Positions 5,312 through 62,740 of a stretch of 64,000 nt of DNA are shown here, piece after piece; the first letter of the stretch is position 1, and the number at the start of each line of letters is the position of its first letter. The notes under the pieces are model-generated. The model saw only the letters and a program-made list of their open reading frames with translations. It was not told the DNA's origin and made no database searches. The stretch spans positions 66,061-130,060 of the forward strand of contig JACOYB010000005.1 in NCBI GenBank assembly GCA_016182085.1, given 5' to 3'. A program made the position numbers and the translations under genes. Source of the stretch: Candidatus Magasanikiibacteriota bacterium (lineage in GTDB: Bacteria; Patescibacteriota; Patescibacteriia; Magasanikbacterales; GWA2-37-8).

Positions 5312-7220
5312 AAAAAGTCTGCAGCCATTGTTTTAAGAGCAGTAAACACCATAAATGATTGCTGTAATCTGCCCGTCCTTTTTTATGGTCTTCCAAAAGT
5401 TTTATAATACAATTTTTATTAAAATATTTATACAGTAAACTATCCGAAACAATCAAACTATCATAGACATAACTGTATAGTTCATTCCGCATCCAAGATC
5501 CGATCGGGATGCCAAAACCAATTTTACGCCGAGCGATGATTTCAGTTGGAATTTTATCTTTTACTATCTCTTTCCAAATCCACTTTACTTGTCCGTTTCT
5601 AACTTTATATTGCTCGGGCAAACTCAAAGCCAATTCTACCAGCCGATGATCTAAAAATGGCGCGCGATTTTCCAAAGCGGAAATCATGCTGGCAAAATCA
5701 ACTTTTAACAAATAATTATCCCCCAGCCTGCCAACGATATCGGCAAGCATCGCTTTATTCATTGTGCCGTAATGCGAAACCCTGCCTTCTCCCCACCACT
5801 GGCGCATTAATTTTTCAGACAAATCAAAATCAATCTGTTCTTTGAGCTCATCAGAATATAAATCGTCTTTGGTCAAATAAAAATGGCTTTGTTTTAATTC
5901 TTTTTTCCAAATTGCGTAATAATCAACATAGGCTTGCTCTAAACTATGGCTCAAGACCTCGGCGCGATAAAATAATTTTTGCAACGATAGTTGGCCGGTA
6001 GCCGCCAGCAACTTTGCGGCTTGTGGAATAATTTTTTTATAAACCACGCCTGGCAAACTTTGATAATTCTTTAAATTTCTTAGAAAAGAATGGTTTGGAT
6101 AACCGCCAAAACATTCATCGGCGCCATCTCCGGTCAAAACCACGGTAACATGCTTTTTTGTTTCCTTGGCCATAATCATCGTTGGCAAGGCGGCATTATC
6201 AAAAAATGGCTCCTCAAATTGATGCACGAGCGCTGGCAAATTTTCTACAACATTTGGCTCAATAATAATTTCCGTATGATCTGTCTTAAATCGATCTGCG
6301 ACAAGTTTTGCAAAAGACAGCTCGCTTTGAGCCTGGTCTTTAAGACCAACTGAGAAAGTTTTTATACTGCTTGTAGATACTTCCGCCATCGCGGCCACAA
6401 CCGAACTTGAATCTAAACCGCCGCTTAAAAAAGCGCCTACCGGCACGTCGCTAATCATTCTGCCTTTAATTGAATCTTTAAATATATCCCAAATATCTTT
6501 TTTCCATTCTTCCAGCGACTTATTTTTATTTTCTTTGGCATAATCAAAAGCTTGCCAGTATGGAGTAACAGAAATATTTCCTTGTCGCCAAATTAAATAA
6601 TGGCCGGCTGGCAATTTTTTAATATGTTTAAATCCGGTCTGGGGCGCTGGCACAAACCGATAGGTCATGGCCAAATCTACCGCCTGCCAATCTGGTTCTC
6701 TGGCCACGCTTGGGTCTATTAAAATTGATTTTAGTTCGGAGGCAAAAATAAATTTCTCTTGATCTGCATAATACTTAAATGGTTTTTCACCCAATCTATC
6801 CCTGGCTGCAAATAAAGTTTGTTCTTGATTATCCCAAATCGCAAACGCAAACATGCCGTTTAACTTATCCAAACATTTTTCTTTCCACTGAATATATGCG
6901 TTTAATAACACCTCTGTATCGCTTTGCGTGTTAAAACTCCAACCCAAGCCGATCAGCTCATTCTTAATTTGTTCGTAATTATAAATTTCACCATTAAAGG
7001 TAATGATAAAACGGCTATCCCGGCTCAGTTTGGGCTGATGACCGCCTGGCGACAAATCAATAATCGCCAAACGACGATGTCCCAAAGCCACAGTCTCTGA
7101 TTGGTTCATCCAGGTGCCATCGCTTTCTGGACCGCGATGCCGCACCGCCAAAAGCATCTTGGCAAAAAGATTTTTATCAATTTTTTGTTTGTTTTGAATA
7201 ACACCGACAATACCGCACAT
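5292..7220 (-). CDS. asnB: Asparagine synthetase (glutamine-hydrolysing) family amidotransferase
   Basis: MCGIVGV N-terminal nucleophile Cys. SGGLDSS PP-loop ATP pyrophosphatase motif. Start set so Cys is residue 2. Confidence 0.9.
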   Translation of the reverse strand: MCGIVGVIQNKQKIDKNLFAKMLLAVRHRGPESDGTWMNQSETVALGHRRLAIIDLSPGGHQPKLSRDSRFIITFNGEIYNYEQIKNELIGLGWSFNTQSDTEVLLNAYIQWKEKCLDKLNGMFAFAIWDNQEQTLFAARDRLGEKPFKYYADQEKFIFASELKSILIDPSVAREPDWQAVDLAMTYRFVPAPQTGFKHIKKLPAGHYLIWRQGNISVTPYWQAFDYAKENKNKSLEEWKKDIWDIFKDSIKGRMISDVPVGAFLSGGLDSSSVVAAMAEVSTSSIKTFSVGLKDQAQSELSFAKLVADRFKTDHTEIIIEPNVVENLPALVHQFEEPFFDNAALPTMIMAKETKKHVTVVLTGDGADECFGGYPNHSFLRNLKNYQSLPGVVYKKIIPQAAKLLAATGQLSLQKLFYRAEVLSHSLEQAYVDYYAIWKKELKQSHFYLTKDDLYSDELKEQIDFDLSEKLMRQWWGEGRVSHYGTMNKAMLADIVGRLGDNYLLKVDFASMISALENRAPFLDHRLVELALSLPEQYKVRNGQVKWIWKEIVKDKIPTEIIARRKIGFGIPIGSWMRNELYSYVYDSLIVSDSLLYKYFNKNCIIKLLEDHKKGRADYSNHLWCLLLLKQWLQTFFAYDKQ

Positions 7221-36364: not shown

Positions 36365-37210
36365 TTATTCAGGCACACAAGCATCATCTACTTCAACGAA
36401 CCCTCGTTTACAGTACCAACTTGATCCTAACACATAAGCGTTTGACGGTGCGATTACTTTCTCGCAAGAATTATTAACTTCCCTGTAGCCATTCTTACAA
36501 TACCAGCTTGAACCTAATATGTATGCATTCGGAGGGGCGATAACTTTTACACAAGAATCATTTTCTTCTTTATAGCCATTCTTACAATACCAGCTTGAAC
36601 CTAAAACATAGGCGTTCACTGGGGCAATTACCTTTTCACAACTATCGCCTACTTCTTTATATCCATTCTTGCAGTACCACTGAGAGCCTAAAATATATGC
36701 ATCTTTTGGGGCAATAACTTTTTCGCAAGTTTCACCGATCTGTTTGTAACCATTTTTACAATACCACTCTGAACCCAACACATAAGCGTTTAGAGGCGCT
36801 ATTACTTTCTCACAACTCTCGCCCACTTGCCTATACCCATTCTTACAATACCAATCGGATCCTAATACATAACCATTAGCAGGTGCTTTAACTTTTTCAC
36901 AGGTTTCATCAACTTGCTTATAACCATTCTTACATACCCAACCCATACCAGATGTTAATGCATTTTCTGGAACTTTCTTTAACGGACAATCATAACAGTC
37001 TTTATAATATCCGCTTGGTGGATACACAACTCCGCCACCGGCAGGATATGTTGGATATAAGCATGGATGTCCAGCATCTCCACATGTATAAGAACCAGTA
37101 TCAGAAGGACAGGAGTGCCAACGATGACAACCAGAGCGATGGGCAAAAGCAGGTGCTGATAAAGACAATACCCCTAATAAAACAACTAAAGCTAGTATGT
37201 ATTTTTTCAT
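36365..37210 (-). CDS. Secreted cysteine-rich tandem-repeat protein
   Basis: Signal peptide (AFA cleavage site). N-terminal HRSGCHRWHSCPSD motif. About 8 tandem ~27-aa repeats with consensus NAYVLGSxWYCKNGYxxVxxSCEKVIAP, two Cys per repeat. Confidence 0.7.
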   Translation of the reverse strand: MKKYILALVVLLGVLSLSAPAFAHRSGCHRWHSCPSDTGSYTCGDAGHPCLYPTYPAGGGVVYPPSGYYKDCYDCPLKKVPENALTSGMGWVCKNGYKQVDETCEKVKAPANGYVLGSDWYCKNGYRQVGESCEKVIAPLNAYVLGSEWYCKNGYKQIGETCEKVIAPKDAYILGSQWYCKNGYKEVGDSCEKVIAPVNAYVLGSSWYCKNGYKEENDSCVKVIAPPNAYILGSSWYCKNGYREVNNSCEKVIAPSNAYVLGSSWYCKRGFVEVDDACVPE

Positions 37211-37331: not shown

Positions 37332-37856
37332 CTAAAATGGTATTTCTTCTTTAACTGTAGGTACTAAATTTAAATTTTTCAAACGATACATCATCGCTTC
37401 CTTACTCACCTGATACTGCTCAGCTAGTTTTTTTAAACTTTCACCATTAACATACAAAGCATCTTTAACTTCTCTTTTAAAATCTTCTACTAAAAACTCT
37501 TCCGGCATTAAAAAATTGGCTGCAAAAAGGTCGGCTCTTTTTTCTTTTTGCGGTTTGTCTGTAAGTGATGTCTTATTTCTATAATCAACTGTTACAGTCT
37601 GATCTGTATCAAAAATAAAATGGGCTAACTCATGGGCTATAGTAAAGCGTATTCTGGATTGTCTTTCATCAGAATTAACCCCCATAAGAACTCCCCCATC
37701 TGATTTTCTGATTAAAACCCCTGAATACTCTTTACTGGGAGCGTAGCTTATATTTATCCCATATTGTGCCACGATATATTCAACAGGCACAGGTGCTTTT
37801 TTAATACCAAAACTATCTAAAATTTCTTTTGTTTTTTCAATAGTTAATTCTTTCAT
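37332..37856 (-). CDS. ImmA/IrrE family zinc metallopeptidase
   Basis: HELAHFIFD is an HEXXH motif. Paired directly with the upstream XRE regulator. Confidence 0.8.
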   Translation of the reverse strand: MKELTIEKTKEILDSFGIKKAPVPVEYIVAQYGINISYAPSKEYSGVLIRKSDGGVLMGVNSDERQSRIRFTIAHELAHFIFDTDQTVTVDYRNKTSLTDKPQKEKRADLFAANFLMPEEFLVEDFKREVKDALYVNGESLKKLAEQYQVSKEAMMYRLKNLNLVPTVKEEIPF

Positions 37857-37860
37857 ATTT

Positions 37861-38205
37861 TTATGCTATCCAACCTAAGATTTTCCCCCATTCTAAAATC
37901 TTCTCATCTTCACTCTTTATATTTTCTATATCAGTCTTACTTAGCGCAACACCTTCTAATCTTTTCGGAAAAAAACCTGACATCTCACACCCTAACAAGG
38001 AAGACAGCTTCCACAGAGTAACGCCGTTTACATTATTTCTGCCATTCTCTATTTGTGAATATGCAACCCTTGTCATGTTTAACGAATTGGCGATAGTTTG
38101 CATGCTTATTTTCCCTCTCAATTTTATGCGTGCAATTTTAATATTTTTAGCTATTTGCTCCTTTATTTCTTTATCCGCTAGATTGCTCATCTTCTTCTTT
38201 GCCAT
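37861..38205 (-). CDS. XRE family helix-turn-helix transcriptional regulator
   Basis: QTIANSLNMTRVAYSQIENGRNNVNGVTLWKLSSLLG is an HTH_3 motif. Confidence 0.8.
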   Translation of the reverse strand: MAKKKMSNLADKEIKEQIAKNIKIARIKLRGKISMQTIANSLNMTRVAYSQIENGRNNVNGVTLWKLSSLLGCEMSGFFPKRLEGVALSKTDIENIKSEDEKILEWGKILGWIA

Positions 38206-38436: not shown

Positions 38437-38733
38437 ATGGCAATCAAAATTAATTGTATCAATAAAGATAATGGCGATCACTATGATCCACACGAGGCTA
38501 TCATTAACCTCGGCTGGCTAGAGGAAGCCACTAACAAGCATGGGGTAAACACTCGGCTAGAAATGGTAGCGTTCATAGAAAATGAGGGGGGCCAAGCATA
38601 TGTCAAAGATGCATATGGAAATAAGGCTTACTTGGTAGTAAGAGAATCTCCGTGGGGAAATAAGTATATGAAAACTATGGCAGATGGTAGAGAAACTAAT
38701 AACTTACTGGCATTATCTGAGTGCCAACGTTAG
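38437..38733 (+). CDS. DUF3892 domain protein
   Basis: 98 aa. CINKDNGDHYDPHEAIINLGW...NNLLALSECQ matches my recollection of the DUF3892 conserved core. Confidence 0.6.
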   Translation: MAIKINCINKDNGDHYDPHEAIINLGWLEEATNKHGVNTRLEMVAFIENEGGQAYVKDAYGNKAYLVVRESPWGNKYMKTMADGRETNNLLALSECQR

Positions 38734-38840
38734 TTCAATAGAAATAGAATAAGGTGGTGGTGCGACTTAGAAACCTAACTGTTGCTCCACCACTCTTCCT
38801 AATACGCGAGCGTAGTCGAACTCGTAACACTTTATTTAAA

Positions 38841-39071
38841 CTAATTAAAAGTATGACACGCATCAGAGGAAACCAAGACGGCCCAAATGGCCGCAATGAA
38901 AGTTACCGCATTGGTAGCAGAAATCATGTCCCACGAGTTCAGGCTGTACGAGAAGTTGAACAAGGTAAACATCCGGGAGCTCATGTGGTAAATATAAACC
39001 ACAGAAATTACGTACGTGATAATCCAGATAGTTCTACAAAAGACAACGTAAATCAAAAATAGGACAGGCAT
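38841..39071 (-). CDS. Small two-helix membrane protein (hypothetical)
   Basis: 76 aa with two hydrophobic segments. The overlapping plus-strand ORF is Arg-rich and looks like antisense noise. Strand choice is uncertain. Confidence 0.3.
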   Translation of the reverse strand: MPVLFLIYVVFCRTIWIITYVISVVYIYHMSSRMFTLFNFSYSLNSWDMISATNAVTFIAAIWAVLVSSDACHTFN

Positions 39072-39337
39072 ATAAAAGAGCCCTTACTGGGTTCTTTTAT
39101 ATTATATGTAAATTAAGCAATAACCAGAAGATTTTTACTCATTTTCTAGATATACACCAGTACATTGCTTTATTTTTACACTAAACGACGATATATGAGT
39201 CGATACTTTGGCTTTAATCAGCTTGTGCATATCGGTTCATTGTCTTTGTTTTTCCTGTATGTTAGAATAATATCGACATTTACCAGTCGATATACAATTT
39301 AAAGACCTAAACCTTTATAATTAAAATATATAAACAA

Positions 39338-39376
39338 ATAACCCTCCCGAATTAGGAAGGGTTATTTTTGTTTTAA
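39338..39376. terminator. Rho-independent terminator hairpin downstream of the DUF378 gene
   Basis: ATAACCCTCC...GGAAGGGTTAT stem flanked by T-runs on both strands. Confidence 0.5.
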
Positions 39377-39382
39377 AAAATT

Positions 39383-39610
39383 CTACATCATCGGTTTTGC
39401 TTCGCAAGCTTTGCAATCTTTTTTGTGGCACAACGCCAATTCTACGGCTGATAAACCAACTAAAACGTATATCACTCTGGAAACCATTGCGCCTTGGCCG
39501 CCGAAAAGCGCGCCTACATCCCAACCAAATAATCCTACCAAGAGCCAGTTTACGCCTCCCACTATTACTAGCGCGAAAGCTACCATATGAAGCCATTTGT
39601 TTTGTTTCAT
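39383..39610 (-). CDS. DUF378 family small membrane protein
   Basis: HMVAFALVIVGGVNWLLVGLFGWDVGALFG matches the DUF378 signature. Start chosen at the Met of MKQNKW, preceded by a perfect GGAGGTG Shine-Dalgarno. Confidence 0.7.
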   Translation of the reverse strand: MKQNKWLHMVAFALVIVGGVNWLLVGLFGWDVGALFGGQGAMVSRVIYVLVGLSAVELALCHKKDCKACEAKPMM

Positions 39611-39693
39611 AATGTCACCTCCTCTCAATACAACTTAAGAGACTACCTTCTACGAACCAAAATCTGACCTGTATATTGTATCACACATTTTCT

Positions 39694-40557
39694 TTATAAT
39701 ACCAACCCTTCCCGATTCTCTTCTTCTTTTCTATTTAGAATATACACATCGGCATTGTATTCGTCATTTCCCACAAACTCGGCTTTTTTGTCTAGGATAG
39801 CTTCCATAGGGGCGCATGTGGAGCAGCCATCACCCGCGGCGCATTTGTACCGTTCCAACTGACGGGCCAATTTTACTTGTCTGGCCACATCCAAAATTCT
39901 TTTATGAGAAGTTTCCAAATCCGGCAGTTCTTTAGGCGAAAGCTGGTCACTGCTATCCAAATACCAATAGCTGGCGCGGCTGGCTTGGCGTTTTTGACAG
40001 TTTTGTACCAAGAGCCTATAAATCGGCAGCTGCAATGATTCGCCGTCTTCTTCGCTCTTGCCGGTTTTAAAATCTATAATATGCACGCTATCGGTATCGG
40101 GCAGATACTCCAGCCAATCTATCTTGCCGCATAAAATAATACTATCCTCTTCGGATAACCAAAATTGCGGCAGATCCATTTGGATTTTTACCGCTAACCC
40201 CGAAATTGGCCCGGGATTATTCATTACCCGTCGTATCATGTCTTGGCCACGAGTTTTGTATTTATATTCTGTTTCCGGGCTGGTAAAACCGCCCTTTTTG
40301 CCGGTTACTTTACCCCAGACCTTTTCAAATTTATCCATCAGCGAATCGGAAAATCTGGAATGCTTAGGTAGTACCGATAATGATTCCAATACTTCATGCA
40401 CGGCCGAACCCAACGCCAAAGCCGGGCTTACTAATTTTATTTTATGATTGGTTTTTGGGTCGCGGTATACGTTTTTTAAGTAATACGCGCGCGGACAGCG
40501 TAAAAAATCGCTTATGGAACTATGCGATACCCAGGTAGCAGTATATTTATCGGGCAT
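39694..40557 (-). CDS. PD-(D/E)XK nuclease with Cas4-like Fe-S cluster cysteines (stand-alone)
   Basis: N-terminal RCPRAYYL. IDWLEY...IIDFKTGK is a PD-(D/E)XK core. C-terminal C-x5-C-x2-C (CAAGDGCSTC). No cas genes or array nearby. Confidence 0.6.
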   Translation of the reverse strand: MPDKYTATWVSHSSISDFLRCPRAYYLKNVYRDPKTNHKIKLVSPALALGSAVHEVLESLSVLPKHSRFSDSLMDKFEKVWGKVTGKKGGFTSPETEYKYKTRGQDMIRRVMNNPGPISGLAVKIQMDLPQFWLSEEDSIILCGKIDWLEYLPDTDSVHIIDFKTGKSEEDGESLQLPIYRLLVQNCQKRQASRASYWYLDSSDQLSPKELPDLETSHKRILDVARQVKLARQLERYKCAAGDGCSTCAPMEAILDKKAEFVGNDEYNADVYILNRKEEENREGLVL

Positions 40558-40562
40558 AAGTT

Positions 40563-40715
40563 ACAATTAAAAGTGTCATCCTGAATTTATTTGCAAGTTG
40601 AGTGAGAGAAAAGTAAATTTTTACTTTTCCGAACGAGCGAAGCAAATATGTTTTAACTATATTTCAGGATCCCCCTGATACCATAAGATCCCGAAACAAG
40701 TTCGGGATGACAGCT
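40563..40715. repeat. Composite palindromic intergenic element (TGTCATCC...GGGATGACAG termini), containing one copy of the GAGTGAG-hairpin-CGAACGA module
   Basis: Terminal inverted motifs gtgtcatcctgaa and ttcgggatgacag. Internal hairpin GATCCCGAAACAAGTTCGGGATG. Internal module GTTGAGTGAGAGAAAAGTAAATTTTTACTTTTCCGAACGAGCGAAG is homologous to the ftsA-upstream tandem repeat. Confidence 0.6.
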
Positions 40716-40881
40716 AGGAATCCAAGGCATCGGCTACAGCGTCTTCTTCGCTTTCGCCTTCATCAAGAAGCCGCACTGCTTTGGCTGCCTGCTCTTCATC
40801 TAAATTAAAATCACTCATCAGTTCGTCAACCGCGGCAGCGACATCTTCTACCGGTTTTTCTTCATCAATTTGATTTTGCAT
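40714..40881 (-). CDS. Small acidic protein (55 aa, hypothetical)
   Basis: ORF MQNQIDEEKPVEDVAAAVDELMSDFNLDEEQAAKAVRLLDEGESEEDAVADALDS, found by hand and below the ORF-track cutoff. Its stop codon lies inside the palindromic element. Confidence 0.3.
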   Translation of the reverse strand: MQNQIDEEKPVEDVAAAVDELMSDFNLDEEQAAKAVRLLDEGESEEDAVADALDS

Positions 40882-41117: not shown

Positions 41118-41654
41118 TTAATTTAAAGTGAGCAGGCCTGATTTTTCTAAAATATCCTGCCATCTTTTCATTTGATTTTCAGTAAGCCAAGAAAAAACCG
41201 GAATAAATTCCTCTTCCGGCGCGCTTGCTTTATTCTGCTCTTCAATCATTTTTTCAATTACTTCATCAGTTAGCGCGCCATCGTTATTTACAGGATTAAT
41301 TTCGGAAATGGATTCCAACTCATTTTGCTGCATTTGTTTCTCTAAATTTCTAACTTTTATGGCTTTCTGAAACAACACTTTCATTCTGAAACCTTTATCT
41401 AAAATATAGCTATCAACCGCTTCGGCATATAATGATTCAAAATCTTTAATGTGTTCCAAATGTCTTTCTTTATATCCTTTTATCGAGCTTTCACTAATAG
41501 TTATCGCGTCTTCCTCTGAAACTGGAGGCAAACTTAATAACATCATATCCTTTTCTAGGGATTTTTCGCCATCTCTGCAGAATTCTTCAATAAGATTTCT
41601 TAACTGCTTAACTTCTTCAAATTTTTTCTCCATCTTATTTCTTTCGCCTTCCAT
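41118..41654 (-). CDS. Hypothetical coiled-coil protein
   Basis: The long ORF reads through tRNA-Thr. Trimmed to the internal Met (MEGERNK...) downstream of the tRNA. No recognised domain. Confidence 0.45.
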   Translation of the reverse strand: MEGERNKMEKKFEEVKQLRNLIEEFCRDGEKSLEKDMMLLSLPPVSEEDAITISESSIKGYKERHLEHIKDFESLYAEAVDSYILDKGFRMKVLFQKAIKVRNLEKQMQQNELESISEINPVNNDGALTDEVIEKMIEEQNKASAPEEEFIPVFSWLTENQMKRWQDILEKSGLLTLN

Positions 41655-41680
41655 AAAAAAAATATTTACAGTTATACTAG

Positions 41681-41753
41681 AGCCGAGAATGGGGATCGAA
41701 CCCACGACCTGCGGTTTACGATACCGCTGCTCTACCAGCTGAGCTATCTCGGC
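41681..41753 (-). tRNA. tRNA-Thr (anticodon CGT)
   Basis: Hand-folded cloverleaf: acceptor GCCGAGA/TCTCGGC, D-arm GCTC-AGCTGGTA-GAGC, anticodon stem GCGGT/ACCGC with loop ATCGTAA, T-arm GTGGG-TTCGATC-CCCAT. CCA is not encoded. Confidence 0.85.
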
Positions 41754-41759
41754 GTAATT

Positions 41760-41872
41760 CCTTGAGCGGACGATGGGAATCCCCGCCCGCCATCGCAAGC
41801 TTGAGCTTGTTTAGGCGTTGCGGGCGGGGAACCCACGACTCAACCTTGCCTGCCCGCCAGCGCTTCGTTTGA
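41760..41872 (-). other. GC-rich degenerate tRNA-like fragments (pseudo-tRNA remnants)
   Basis: The minus strand contains GTCGTGGGTTCCCCGCCCGC and GGGGATTCCCATCGTCCGCTCAAGG, which resemble T-arm/acceptor halves of the flanking tRNAs. No complete cloverleaf could be folded. Confidence 0.35.
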
Positions 41873-41942
41873 GCGAGTGAAGGGAATCGAACCCTCATCT
41901 CAACCTTGGGAAGGTTGCATACTGCCACTATACTACACTCGC
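41873..41942 (-). tRNA. tRNA-Gly (anticodon CCC)
   Basis: Acceptor GCGAGTG/CACTCGC, anticodon stem CAACC/GGTTG with loop TTCCCAA, T-arm GAGGG-TTCGATT-CCCTC. CCA is not encoded. Confidence 0.8.
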
Positions 41943-45482: not shown

Positions 45483-46058
45483 CTATTGTCTCAAACTGAC
45501 TTCATATAAAACCTGCTCCAATTTATGCAGAGCTTGTTTAGCTTGATCAAATTTCTGGCGGTTATAACCGGTTAAATTCATATCAACGAGTTCGCCAATA
45601 ATTTCGTCGGCCGCAGCTCGGCATCTTTTTACTTCTTCAAACTTTTTTTCCGTAGCCGATTTTATGGCATAACGCAAAAGTTCTCCGGGCACATCGCACA
45701 AACCGCCAACAAAAATATCCGTGTCTATCTTGATTTTGGGCAACTTGCCGATAGTTTTCTTCTGCAGATAGCGATTAAACAAAGACGCTTCCACAAACTC
45801 TTCCAAGGCTGCTTTATACGATCCTTCCTCAAAAATTCCCGGCTCTTTCTTATGTTTAATGTTTAAATCCACAATAATTTTTTCCGCCTGAGATAAAAGC
45901 TGCTGAGCTTCACCGGCATCATCTCTTTGCATGGCAAAAATCGCTTTCTTGGAAAGAAACTGCGCCTGGCTGGATTCTTTTATTACTTCCTGCCGCTTAG
46001 CCGCATAGCCCAACAATTCTTGCCGCACTTCGTTAAAATATTTTTTGTCTAGTGTCAT
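45483..46058 (-). CDS. Translin-family protein (putative)
   Basis: 191 aa all-helical protein. GGLCDVPGELLRYAI resembles the translin DxxGELxR catalytic motif. Recognition is from memory. Confidence 0.4.
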   Translation of the reverse strand: MTLDKKYFNEVRQELLGYAAKRQEVIKESSQAQFLSKKAIFAMQRDDAGEAQQLLSQAEKIIVDLNIKHKKEPGIFEEGSYKAALEEFVEASLFNRYLQKKTIGKLPKIKIDTDIFVGGLCDVPGELLRYAIKSATEKKFEEVKRCRAAADEIIGELVDMNLTGYNRQKFDQAKQALHKLEQVLYEVSLRQ

Positions 46059-61253: not shown

Positions 61254-62519
61254 CTATGGTATGAGTGTTTTAAATAATTTTTTTACATGATCAAGTGCTT
61301 TACCCGTACCTCTAAAAACATCACCCACTCCCGACTTACCATACCCGCTGCCTGCCTGCATACTACTTCCCCATTTTACCAACCCCACAGCCGTGGCAAA
61401 ACCCAAATCATTCACTTTATCGGTAACGCTTATCACGTTAATCGGATATCCTAAATTAGTCGGCAAACGCAAAACTTTCTTAGATATTTCTACGAGCCCC
61501 GGAAGTTTGGCGCCAGCGCCGGTAAACATAACCCCGGCCGGAAGCAGGCCTGAACGTTGAATTTTTCTAAGTTCATTATCAATTTTTTGTAAAATCTCTT
61601 CCACGCGCGCGGAAATTATTTCGGTTAAATATTTCTTTTTAACAATATCGTGTTCCGGGGACCCCAATTCAAATAGATCTATCTCATCTTTTTTGGAAGT
61701 AAGATCAACCCGACAATCCCCATTTTCCAATTTTACACGCTCCGCAACATCTACCGACGTTCGCAGCCCTACGGCAATATCATTGGTAATGAGCTGGGAA
61801 CCGATTGGAATAATAGCTGTATGAATTAACTGCCCCTCTTCAAAAACGGCCAGACTGGTAGTTGACCCGCCAAGATTAACCACCATCACGCCTAATTCTT
61901 TCTGACGTTTAGTTACAACTGTTTCAGACGTGGCAATAATAGATAACACCAAGTCTTCAATATCAAGACCGGCGCGGTATACGGCTTTAGTTAAATTCTT
62001 TATTTGTGAAGATGAACCTAAAATTATTTGAGTGTCGACTTCCAAGCGTACGCCCGTCATTGAAGTTGGGTCTTTAATGCCCGACTGGCCATCAACCGTA
62101 TAATGCTTCGGCAGGACGTGCAGCACTTCATAATTAAGCGGTGTTGCGATTGATCTGGCGGCTTCTACAGCTCTTTGTATATCTTCTTCAGCTATTTCGT
62201 TATTGGCTTTGGAAACCGCAATCACACCTTTGCTGTTTTGGGACAAGATGTGCAGCCCGGATATCCCCACCCAGGTACTATCTACAGGAACCCCCACCAT
62301 TCTTTCCACTCTTTCCAAACATGCAGAAACGGAAGACACGACGTCTTCAATGCTATTTATTACCCCTTTTTGCACGCCATCTGAAGGAAATTCAGCTGCG
62401 CCTAAAATTTGCAATTCCTGGGCGCCAGCTTCTTTATCTATAAGCTGACCTACAACCATGCGCACAAAATTAGAGCCAATATCCAGTCCGCTAATTAAAT
62501 TGCCTTGATTTTTTCTCAT
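61254..62519 (-). CDS. ftsA: Cell division protein FtsA
   Basis: Actin/ASKHA fold: ISGLDIGSNFVRMVVGQ N-terminus and MFTGAGAKLPGL. Start set at the Met of MRKNQ, because the longer ORF N-terminus is a translation of the upstream repeat. Confidence 0.9.
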   Translation of the reverse strand: MRKNQGNLISGLDIGSNFVRMVVGQLIDKEAGAQELQILGAAEFPSDGVQKGVINSIEDVVSSVSACLERVERMVGVPVDSTWVGISGLHILSQNSKGVIAVSKANNEIAEEDIQRAVEAARSIATPLNYEVLHVLPKHYTVDGQSGIKDPTSMTGVRLEVDTQIILGSSSQIKNLTKAVYRAGLDIEDLVLSIIATSETVVTKRQKELGVMVVNLGGSTTSLAVFEEGQLIHTAIIPIGSQLITNDIAVGLRTSVDVAERVKLENGDCRVDLTSKKDEIDLFELGSPEHDIVKKKYLTEIISARVEEILQKIDNELRKIQRSGLLPAGVMFTGAGAKLPGLVEISKKVLRLPTNLGYPINVISVTDKVNDLGFATAVGLVKWGSSMQAGSGYGKSGVGDVFRGTGKALDHVKKLFKTLIP

Positions 62520-62740
62520 AAACGAAATGAGTGAGTGAAGTGACAAGCTTGCTTGATCACTTCCGAACGAATAAGTTTATATCGCGGATATAATCGAAAT
62601 GAGTGAGTGAAATGTCTGGCTTGCCAAGACATTTCCGAACGAATAAGTTTATATCTGCTATATAAACGAAATGAGTGAGTGAAGTGACAAGCTTGCTTGA
62701 TCACTTCCGAACGAATGAGTTTATACCACAGATATAAGTT
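62520..62740. repeat. 3 tandem ~72-nt structured repeats abutting the ftsA start codon
   Basis: Unit: AAACGAAATGAGTGAGTGAA-[hairpin]-TTCCGAACGAATAAGTTTATAT. Hairpin GTGACAAGCTTGCTTGATCAC in units 1 and 3 versus ATGTCTGGCTTGCCAAGACAT in unit 2. Stems differ but the structure is conserved. Confidence 0.8.

Follow-up and report, generated by a model that had tools for sequence, protein, structure and literature searches.

A strongly conserved stand-alone Cas4/AddB-type nuclease gene of Patescibacteria beside a variable chromosomal segment

What is a Cas4-like nuclease gene doing in a bacterium of the Patescibacteria (CPR) when no CRISPR-Cas system accompanies it? The question is raised by an ORF that encodes 287 amino acids at 39694..40557 (minus strand) in a 64-kb window from a Candidatus Magasanikiibacteriota bacterium, the window being the whole stretch of DNA that was analysed. 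An initial annotation, which gave no strand, had described the product as a stand-alone Cas4-like PD-(D/E)XK nuclease with Fe-S cysteines and had placed the gene in an island next to ImmA and XRE genes. Its description as a stand-alone nuclease of this type with four conserved cysteines was borne out by the PF12705 match, the sequence alignment, and the fold comparison, whereas its placement in an island had to be revised.

Catalytic core, fold, and family of the nuclease

The ORF is real. It begins with ATG, and its product matches PF12705 (PDDEXK_1) over the full length of the profile (residues 10–249 aligned with profile positions 2–241 of 247), with an E-value of 2.4e-24 and a score of 87.1 bits against a gathering cut-off of 22. 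Because this full-length match is joined by 7031 homologous clusters retrieved in a word-indexed search, the assignment lies far beyond chance. The N-terminal RCPRAYYL segment that had been noted earlier occupies residues 20–27 (R20-C21-P22-R23-A24-Y25-Y26-L27), and the RecB nuclease motifs are complete. Motifs II (D147) and III (D162-F-K164) are encoded at 40066..40119 and the RecB-family QhxxY motif (Q176-x3-Y180, here Q176-L-P-I-Y180) at 40018..40032, both on the minus strand. All five residues (D147, D162, K164, Q176, and Y180) are invariant in an alignment of 39 sequences, and D147, D162, and K164 are the predicted metal-binding and catalytic residues of the PD-(D/E)XK fold. The core had been written as D...E.K; a catalytic core is indeed present, but its third motif is D-x-K, not E-x-K.

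A ColabFold model, for which an alignment of 39 diverse relatives served as the input, had a pLDDT of 93.9 and a pTM of 0.89, with disorder confined to the last four residues (pLDDT <50 for 284–287). Both Pfam and the model describe a single domain of 287 amino acids with no fused helicase module. When the model was compared with known structures, ACE1 (16.1), the AdnA nuclease domain (15.5), and the Dna2 nuclease (15.2) gave the highest values, and the true Cas4 structures were ranked below these three (type I-C Cas4, 11.7; SSO0001 Cas4, 10.1; Pcal_0546 Cas4, 7.4), with AddB at 7.9. The Foldseek E-values were 3e-9 for ACE1, 5e-8 for AdnA, 1e-5 for AddB, and 1e-3 for SSO0001, a ranking that broadly agrees with the structure comparison. 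ACE1, the nearest solved relative by fold, is an ssDNA endonuclease with an Fe4S4 cluster, and its D-DxK site lies buried within a narrow channel (PMC12094033); ACE1 shares 14–16% identity with the nuclease, with a sequence match of E 0.04. It occurs only in cyanobacteria and is defined by its co-encoding with a long-A pAgo, whereas no Argonaute gene lies beside the nuclease in the window or in any of 81 orthologous loci. The nuclease domains of AdnA (mycobacterial AdnAB), AddB (Bacillus AddAB), and Dna2 are also among the near fold relatives. In AddB and AdnA, the domain is fused to an SF1 helicase or helicase-like module and is accompanied by a gene for a partner subunit, whereas the Patescibacteria nuclease is a single domain, with no helicase gene in the window or among its conserved neighbours.

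The profile models for CRISPR-associated Cas4 did not recognise the protein. TIGR00372 (Cas4) reached 32.9 bits against a cut-off of 65 and covered only residues 12–62, and PF01930 gave no match at E 0.01, which means that one of the two profiles proposed earlier as a check, PF12705, detected the nuclease and the other did not. The score for the addB model TIGR02786 was 17.7 bits, against the 486.5 required, and the PADLOC models for Cas4, Aga_Cas4-like, and DruK matched weakly (19–34 bits, with the Cas4 models at about 33). Since the nuclease fails the CRISPR Cas4 models, it is placed in the iron-staple, RecB-like PF12705 branch of the wider Cas4 family; it is a Cas4/AddB-type RecB-like nuclease and not a Cas4 in the strict sense. 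Its orthologues are inconsistently named across databases, as 'PD-(D/E)XK nuclease family protein', 'Cas4', 'RecB family exonuclease', or 'helicase/DNAse subunit B'.

These data bear directly on the idea that the gene encodes a true Cas4 of CRISPR adaptation, with cas1/cas2 and an array elsewhere in the genome, which we regard as extremely improbable. JGI names some orthologues 'CRISPR/Cas system-associated exonuclease Cas4', a few orthologues carry a PF01930 match, and TIGR00372 matches the N-terminal 50 residues of the nuclease. However, the nuclease scores below the thresholds of the family to which SSO0001, Pcal_0546, and the type I-C protein belong (DUF83/PF01930, TIGR00372), the structures of true Cas4 proteins rank below those of ACE1, AdnA, and Dna2, the cysteine order differs, and the protein, at 287 amino acids, is approximately 70–100 residues longer than CRISPR Cas4 (171–221 amino acids for DUF83 Cas4; PMC4176176). 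Moreover, CRISPR Cas4 sits with cas genes, whereas the nuclease has no such context. In the 64-kb window, tandem-repeat, repeat, and Rfam scans detected no CRISPR array and a Pfam search of approximately 48 ORFs detected no cas or helicase genes, in agreement with the earlier statement that the stretch contains neither an array nor cas1/cas2; across the 81 orthologous loci, no cas, helicase, or Argonaute gene was found beside the nuclease orthologue.

CPR and DPANN genomes without CRISPR are enriched in solo Cas4-family genes; these genes are inherited mainly vertically and are under purifying selection, with repair or defence as possible roles, and pfam12705 contains no major CRISPR-associated branches (Hudaiberdiev et al. 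2017, PMC5704561). The gene studied here resembles the solo-Cas4/pfam12705 genes of that survey in that it is unconnected with CRISPR, occurs in CPR bacteria, is inherited vertically, and has an uncharacterised role. The survey dealt with pfam12705 briefly (phage clades and UvrD fusions), and the Patescibacteria subfamily, its cysteine spacing, and its C-terminal tip are absent from it.

Cysteine order and the C-terminal tip

The nuclease has the four conserved cysteines, one N-terminal and three C-terminal, that characterise an iron staple. The predicted N-terminal cluster ligand, C21, lies within RCPRAYYL (codon 40495..40497, minus strand) and is invariant in the 39-sequence alignment. The predicted C-terminal cluster cysteines form C239-x5-C245-x2-C248 (39814..39843, minus strand), and their codons were checked in the DNA sequence (C239, 39841-39843; C245, 39823-39825; C248, 39814-39816). 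Of these, C248 never varies, at least 90% of the aligned sequences retain C245, and C239 is invariant within the closer group. The initial annotation had taken C-x5-C-x2-C as a Cas4/AddB signature. The motif does exist, but the canonical Cas4 spacing, taken here from PMC4176176, is C-x2-C-x5-C, as in the Cas4 protein Pcal_0546, with ligands C64, C200, C203, and C209. The same annotation had tied its reading to the presence of a fourth cysteine and to a position apart from the RecB-family housekeeping nucleases; the fourth cysteine is present, yet by fold the protein groups with the AdnA/AddB/Dna2 type ahead of CRISPR Cas4 and behaves like a housekeeping gene.

The non-canonical order is the rule in the family. 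Among 244 full-length relatives, 228 have C-x(4-8)-C-x2-C without a cysteine five residues past the CxxC, whereas the canonical C-x2-C-x5-C occurs in seven, which are solely the most distant ones, and both positions of the third cysteine are never occupied together (0 of 244). Because the upstream and downstream positions are mutually exclusive, the pattern fits one four-ligand site in which one ligand has been relocated, that is, a lone third cysteine that would have moved from after to before the CxxC while the single four-cysteine site was kept. To judge from the fold relatives, the four cysteines would bind an Fe-S cluster, by which the N-terminal and C-terminal portions of the domain would be stapled to each other. 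Some characterised members of the Cas4 family are active nucleases without a cluster (PMC4176176).

A second feature lies at the very end of the protein. After the last strand (DVYIL) and a variable acidic linker, the chain ends in a conserved tip, E-G-L-V-L (39697..39711, minus strand), with the consensus [ED][GS]x[IVL]L. Among 202 orthologues, 198 have G or S at position -4 and 162 have E or D at position -5; approximately 194 end in L, and I, L, or V occupies position -2 in nearly every one. The conservation of a disordered terminal peptide beyond a variable linker suggests a docking motif, and the tip is therefore a candidate site at which a partner protein may bind. Among the distant relatives, some have no tail and others end in D-[LI]-P-F (DLPF/DIPF), like bacterial SSB tails. 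Mimicry of the SSB tail by the nuclease was considered and ruled out: two CPR SSBs from the compared loci end in EDIPF and DDMPF, and because these ends differ from [GS]x[IVL]L, the tip is no copy of an SSB tail.

Distribution, descent, and chromosomal setting

In the word-indexed search, the best 120 of the 7031 clusters shared 66–92% identity with the nuclease and were 284–323 amino acids long (mostly 287–290), and those with names were assigned to Magasanikbacteria or the Patescibacteria group. An exhaustive search of representatives at 50% identity yielded 554 matches at E ≤1e-3, of which 63 reached E ≤1e-30; on the evidence of its sequences, the family is compact. A profile scan of one genome per species, made with a narrow alignment, found relatives in at least 491 genomes, the best 80 of which encoded proteins with 61–87% identity to the nuclease. 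Carriers with lineage names include Magasanik-, Shapiro-, Woese-, Collier-, Levy-, and Pace-bacteria and CPR3. When distant clusters were looked up, one was named Patescibacteria and the rest had no taxon name.

The protein is under strong constraint. Its identity to the orthologues at four compared loci (L006, L010, L014, and L015) is 85, 79, 73, and 74%, respectively, and the flanking DivIC (70, 62, 43, and 40%), PpiC (51, 61, 39, and 50%), and Mur ligase (72, 59, and 67% at the last three loci) are less conserved; the corresponding values for the translin-family protein at the last three loci are 80, 60, and 64%. Against 11 orthologues, dN was 0.10–0.33; only dN, and no dN/dS, can be reported because the synonymous sites are saturated. 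In a neighbor-joining tree of 81 orthologues, all the labelled Magasanikbacteria formed one clade with the window sequence and three Shapirobacteria grouped together. The tree thus follows the taxon labels, which is consistent with vertical descent, and the nuclease gene has the appearance of a chromosomal gene that is passed on vertically, with strong conservation, in these tiny-genome bacteria. Many of the carrier records are TPA metagenome-assembled genomes titled 'uncultured Gammaproteobacteria' or 'Pseudomonadales'. In the tree, several of the sequences so titled fall among labelled Patescibacteria, some of them inside the Magasanikbacteria clade, and we treated their titles as unreliable.

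Among the approximately 48 ORFs of the window, Pfam identified polysaccharide and glycosyltransferase genes, FtsA/FtsZ, NrdR, pyruvate kinase, SHMT, a Mur ligase, DivIC, PpiC, and a translin-family gene. In the close clade, the backbone runs translin, Mur ligase, a 211-aa ORF, DivIC, PpiC, zero to five variable genes, a small acidic ORF, the nuclease, DUF378, further variable genes, FtsE, and FtsX. The small acidic ORF encodes 55 amino acids directly upstream of the nuclease (40714..40881, minus strand); its position is kept in the close clade, tblastn matches lie just upstream of the orthologue at 11 of the compared loci (L001-L003 and L006-L013), and no family match was found for it. The DUF378 gene directly downstream (39383..39628, minus strand; PF04070, E 7.6e-19) encodes a small membrane protein, is likewise kept downstream of the orthologue in the close clade, and is probably co-transcribed with the nuclease. 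It is followed by a terminator-like hairpin at 39336..39367 (minus strand), a 13-pair stem with a T-rich tail that matches the terminator consensus only. As a predicted terminator, this hairpin would close the unit of the small 55-aa ORF, the nuclease, and DUF378, and would part this unit from the variable segment. When the ORFs of the 81 orthologous loci were clustered, no conserved partner gene emerged; the most frequent neighbour cluster was present at 10 of 81 loci, and the commonest clusters were FtsE-like ABC ATPases, epimerases, glycosyltransferases, FtsX, MetK, and DUF378. In the absence of a conserved neighbour, the genomic context gives no clue to the pathway of the nuclease.

There is indeed a variable segment, but its boundary leaves the nuclease within the conserved part. 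None of the 81 loci contains a counterpart of the genes at 35.9–39.3 kb, namely those for a lipoprotein, a Cys-rich repeat protein, ImmA (37332-37856), and XRE (37861-38205), and two DUF3892 ORFs. Both genes named in the earlier island claim are real, and they lie 1.5–2.4 kb from the nuclease, past DUF378, the terminator-like hairpin, and the two DUF3892 ORFs on the opposite strand. Some of the variable genes are AT-rich (ImmA, GC 0.328 and GC3 0.229; lipoprotein, 0.295 and 0.216) and others are less so (XRE and the DUF3892 ORFs, GC 0.357 and 0.407), whereas the nuclease, with a GC of 0.442 and a GC3 of 0.458, resembles FtsZ, SHMT, and pyruvate kinase. Because the nuclease belongs to the syntenic backbone, has a core-like GC and GC3, is conserved above its housekeeping neighbours, and is separated by the terminator-like hairpin, it is placed outside the island; a sequence search of phage records also detected no relative. 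The tempting reading of a 'defence island' is thus corrected: the nuclease is part of the core chromosome, and the island starts beside it.

This correction weighs on the possibility that the protein is a defence nuclease that degrades or processes invading DNA, either as cargo of the ImmA/XRE island or as a helper that acts in trans for a distant defence system, as ACE1 does with Argonaute. The closest solved structure is the Argonaute-associated ACE1, the weak PADLOC matches (19–34 bits) are to Cas4, Aga_Cas4-like, and DruK models, the neighbouring ImmA matches capP with an E-value of 2.4e-31, and defence or repair roles have been proposed for solo Cas4 in small genomes (PMC5704561). Nevertheless, the likeness to ACE1 amounts to the low identity and marginal sequence match given above, neither pAgo nor any other defence gene is a conserved neighbour at the 81 loci, and the AT-rich ImmA segment is unique to the window genome among the compared loci and lies beyond the hairpin from a backbone gene of core-like composition. 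Furthermore, the nuclease is more conserved than its cell-division neighbours, unlike genes engaged in an arms race. We consider a role in defence quite unlikely.

The spacer upstream of the nuclease (40558-40713, 156 bp) shows strong secondary structure (fold z-scores, -5.7 and -6.5) and contains a nested palindromic insertion (40574..40712, with no strand assigned). Within it lies a core copy (40600-40636, plus strand) of a repeat, GAGTGAGNGAA-[hairpin]-TTCCGAACGA, which occurs in four copies in the window versus zero expected; the remaining three stand in tandem immediately upstream of ftsA. At least 120 metagenome stretches also contain the element, as does the interval between divIC and ppiC in a relative. 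Both of its stems vary in sequence yet stay complementary, and its orientation relative to the flanking ORFs is unbiased (95 opposite, 85 same). A comparison of the upstream structure with Rfam gave no match, either at the gathering threshold or with the E-value limit relaxed to 5. In most close relatives (L007 and L009-L012), the orthologous spacer is 12–37 bp long, versus 156 bp in the window, and at L006 it holds a GIY-YIG-like ORF instead of the palindrome. The structured repeat reported in the first reading of the sequence is thus real, but it is dispersed and missing from the spacer of the relatives. Because it occurs at other sites, shows no orientation bias, and is absent from the relatives, a role as a cis-regulator of the nuclease was ruled out, and we interpret the element as a dispersed palindrome, similar to REP/MITE elements, that came to lie in a spacer prone to insertions.

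Such small mobile insertions on the flank of the gene (the palindrome in the window and the GIY-YIG-like ORF at L006), together with tRNA genes 1.1 kb away, could also be expected if the nuclease were a Cas4-family or RecB-like recombination exonuclease derived from a phage or another mobile element and left in a prophage remnant. The phage PF12705 exonucleases share its fold and size (TM 0.6–0.65), and the phrog_69 'exonuclease' profile matches it with an E-value of 2.1e-18. However, its identity to the viral models in BFVD is 11–19%, a tblastn search of 50,697 phage records returned nothing at E 1e-3, and no SSAP, integrase, or structural genes lie nearby. With the gene in a conserved syntenic backbone, a tree that tracks the taxon labels, and a core-like composition, an origin of this kind is very unlikely.

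Proposed role and significance

We consider it reasonably probable that the protein is a metal-dependent, iron-staple nuclease of the RecB/Cas4/AddB class, with DNA ends or single strands as its targets, and that it serves the housekeeping processing of ssDNA ends, a cellular role drawn from fold relatives with which it shares 14–18% identity. By analogy with these relatives, an ssDNA end would pass into a narrow channel, where the enzyme would cleave it endonucleolytically or in the 5'-to-3' direction. The purpose would be general DNA maintenance, in which ssDNA tails or flaps are trimmed or resected during recombinational repair or replication restart, rather than CRISPR adaptation or defence as mobile cargo. 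The nuclease may act in trans, together with a helicase or hub protein from another gene; the conserved tip ([ED][GS]x[IVL]L after the acidic linker) is probably the tether to that protein. A related genome (L004) encodes RecJ, so that a 5'-3' ssDNA exonuclease is already present in the lineage and the nuclease is not simply a RecJ substitute. One solo-Cas4 prefers dsDNA (PMC12501428), and because of this preference and of the activity of cluster-less enzymes (PMC4176176), the choice of substrate is not safely transferable to the nuclease. Our search of the literature on the recombination repertoire of Patescibacteria returned nothing usable.

CPR bacteria import DNA and, for the most part, cannot make nucleotides de novo. 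A conserved cytoplasmic ssDNA nuclease could convert such DNA into nucleotides, and the restriction of the named family members to Patescibacteria, the strong constraint, and the preference for ssDNA ends predicted from the fold relatives are all compatible with such a salvage function. On the other hand, no competence or nucleotide-metabolism gene is linked to the nuclease at the 81 loci, and nothing in the sequence sets salvage apart from repair; we judge salvage to be unlikely. As for the housekeeping processing of DNA ends, a stronger form can be envisaged, in which the protein is the Patescibacteria's own stand-alone end-resection or flap nuclease, indispensable to them, with a moved Fe-S ligand and C-terminal docking to a replication or repair hub (helicase, clamp, RecA, or the SSB network), and replaces AddAB/RecBCD. 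This is offered as a speculative proposal of doubtful standing.

That solo Cas4-family genes occur in CPR bacteria has been known since 2017 (PMC5704561), and the presence of one here will not surprise a specialist. The unusually high conservation of the subfamily, its relocated cysteine ligand, and its C-terminal tip, in contrast, appear to be undescribed so far. The nuclease is among the most conserved proteins of unknown role in the Patescibacteria, which cannot be grown alone and whose DNA-maintenance toolkit is poorly understood. As a small protein with a confident model, it is a candidate for expression, and it offers two testable peculiarities, namely the putative relocation of an Fe-S ligand and a conserved C-terminal peptide through which the partner should be identifiable. 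The identity of that partner would show how minimal bacteria process DNA ends.

Spacer and insertions around the nuclease gene

Directly upstream of the stand-alone nuclease gene (39694-40557, minus strand), a very acidic 55-amino-acid ORF (40714-40881, minus strand), which matched no known family, is retained at the same position in 11 related loci (L001–L003 and L006–L013). The spacer between this ORF and the nuclease gene contains a palindrome in the window, whereas in locus L006 it contains an 84-amino-acid ORF (positions 5744-5998 of that locus), which we read as GIY-YIG-like. The presence of these two different elements at the same site makes this spacer look like a hot spot for insertions. 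Between the nuclease unit and the genes for tRNA-Thr (41680-41753) and tRNA-Gly (41871-41942) lies an AT-rich ORF (41118-41600, minus strand; GC content 0.34) that encodes about 160 amino acids. It matched no protein family and had no counterpart in the related loci, and is probably another small insertion. Further along, a translin-family gene (45483-46058, minus strand; PF01997, E = 1.7e-16) adjoins a Mur ligase gene, and its position is conserved in three related loci (L010, L014, and L015). Translin is a nucleic-acid-binding protein found mainly in eukaryotes and archaea.

A widespread family of intergenic palindromes

The palindrome in the spacer (40600-40636) belongs to a widespread intergenic family detected in at least 120 metagenome stretches; its copies include those at 62518-62737 of the window, at 1334-1376 of the related locus L001, and in the loci L086–L165. 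The copies, which occur singly or in tandem arrays, share the layout GAGTGAGNGAA-[variable hairpin]-TTCCGAACGA, with a second variable stem around the whole, and complementarity is retained in both stems despite their changing sequences. On our reading, the conserved 7+7 "loop" (GAGUGAG/CGAACGA) could be drawn with two G.A/A.G pairs in tandem and a G-C and a U-A pair between them. The palindromes showed no orientation bias relative to the flanking genes and matched no Rfam family.

Taxonomic labels and distant relatives of the nuclease

Many of the TPA metagenome-assembled genomes in which close orthologues occur (L006–L085) bear the title "uncultured Gammaproteobacteria" or "Pseudomonadales". 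Several sequences with these titles nest among labelled Patescibacteria, some of them within the Magasanikbacteria clade, and the titles look like mislabels. Among the more distant relatives, one metagenomic protein of 1047 amino acids (P0247) is composed of four tandem copies of the nuclease domain, each with 21–26% identity to the nuclease in the window. Some distant members of the family (P0146, P0156, P0190, P0216, P0268, and P0269) have D-L-P-F or D-I-P-F as their last residues, a tip shared with the C-termini of bacterial SSBs; EDIPF and DDMPF are the C-terminal sequences of the two CPR SSBs identified in L057 and L084. The SSB-like tips of these distant nucleases suggest a link to the SSB-interaction network, into which the proteins would plug.

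The variable segment and its XRE/ImmA pair

The variable segment at 35.9–39.3 kb of the window had no counterpart in the 81 related loci. It includes a secreted Cys-rich protein (36365-37210, minus strand) consisting of approximately six repeats of 29 amino acids (an 87-nucleotide period in the DNA) with the recurring motif W-x-C-K-N-G-Y...C-E-K-V, to which Pfam gave only spurious EGF- and LIM-type matches. The same segment carries a pair of genes encoding an XRE-HTH protein and an ImmA/IrrE metallopeptidase (37332-38205, minus strand), the latter matching the PADLOC capP model (E = 2.4e-31); the ImmA gene and the adjoining lipoprotein gene are AT-rich. Transcribed divergently from the pair are a DUF3892 gene and another ORF (38437-39062, plus strand; the latter at 38754-39062), and a weak DUF3892 gene was called on the source contig in the stretch of this latter ORF. 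The XRE/ImmA pair may constitute a small damage-responsive accessory module.
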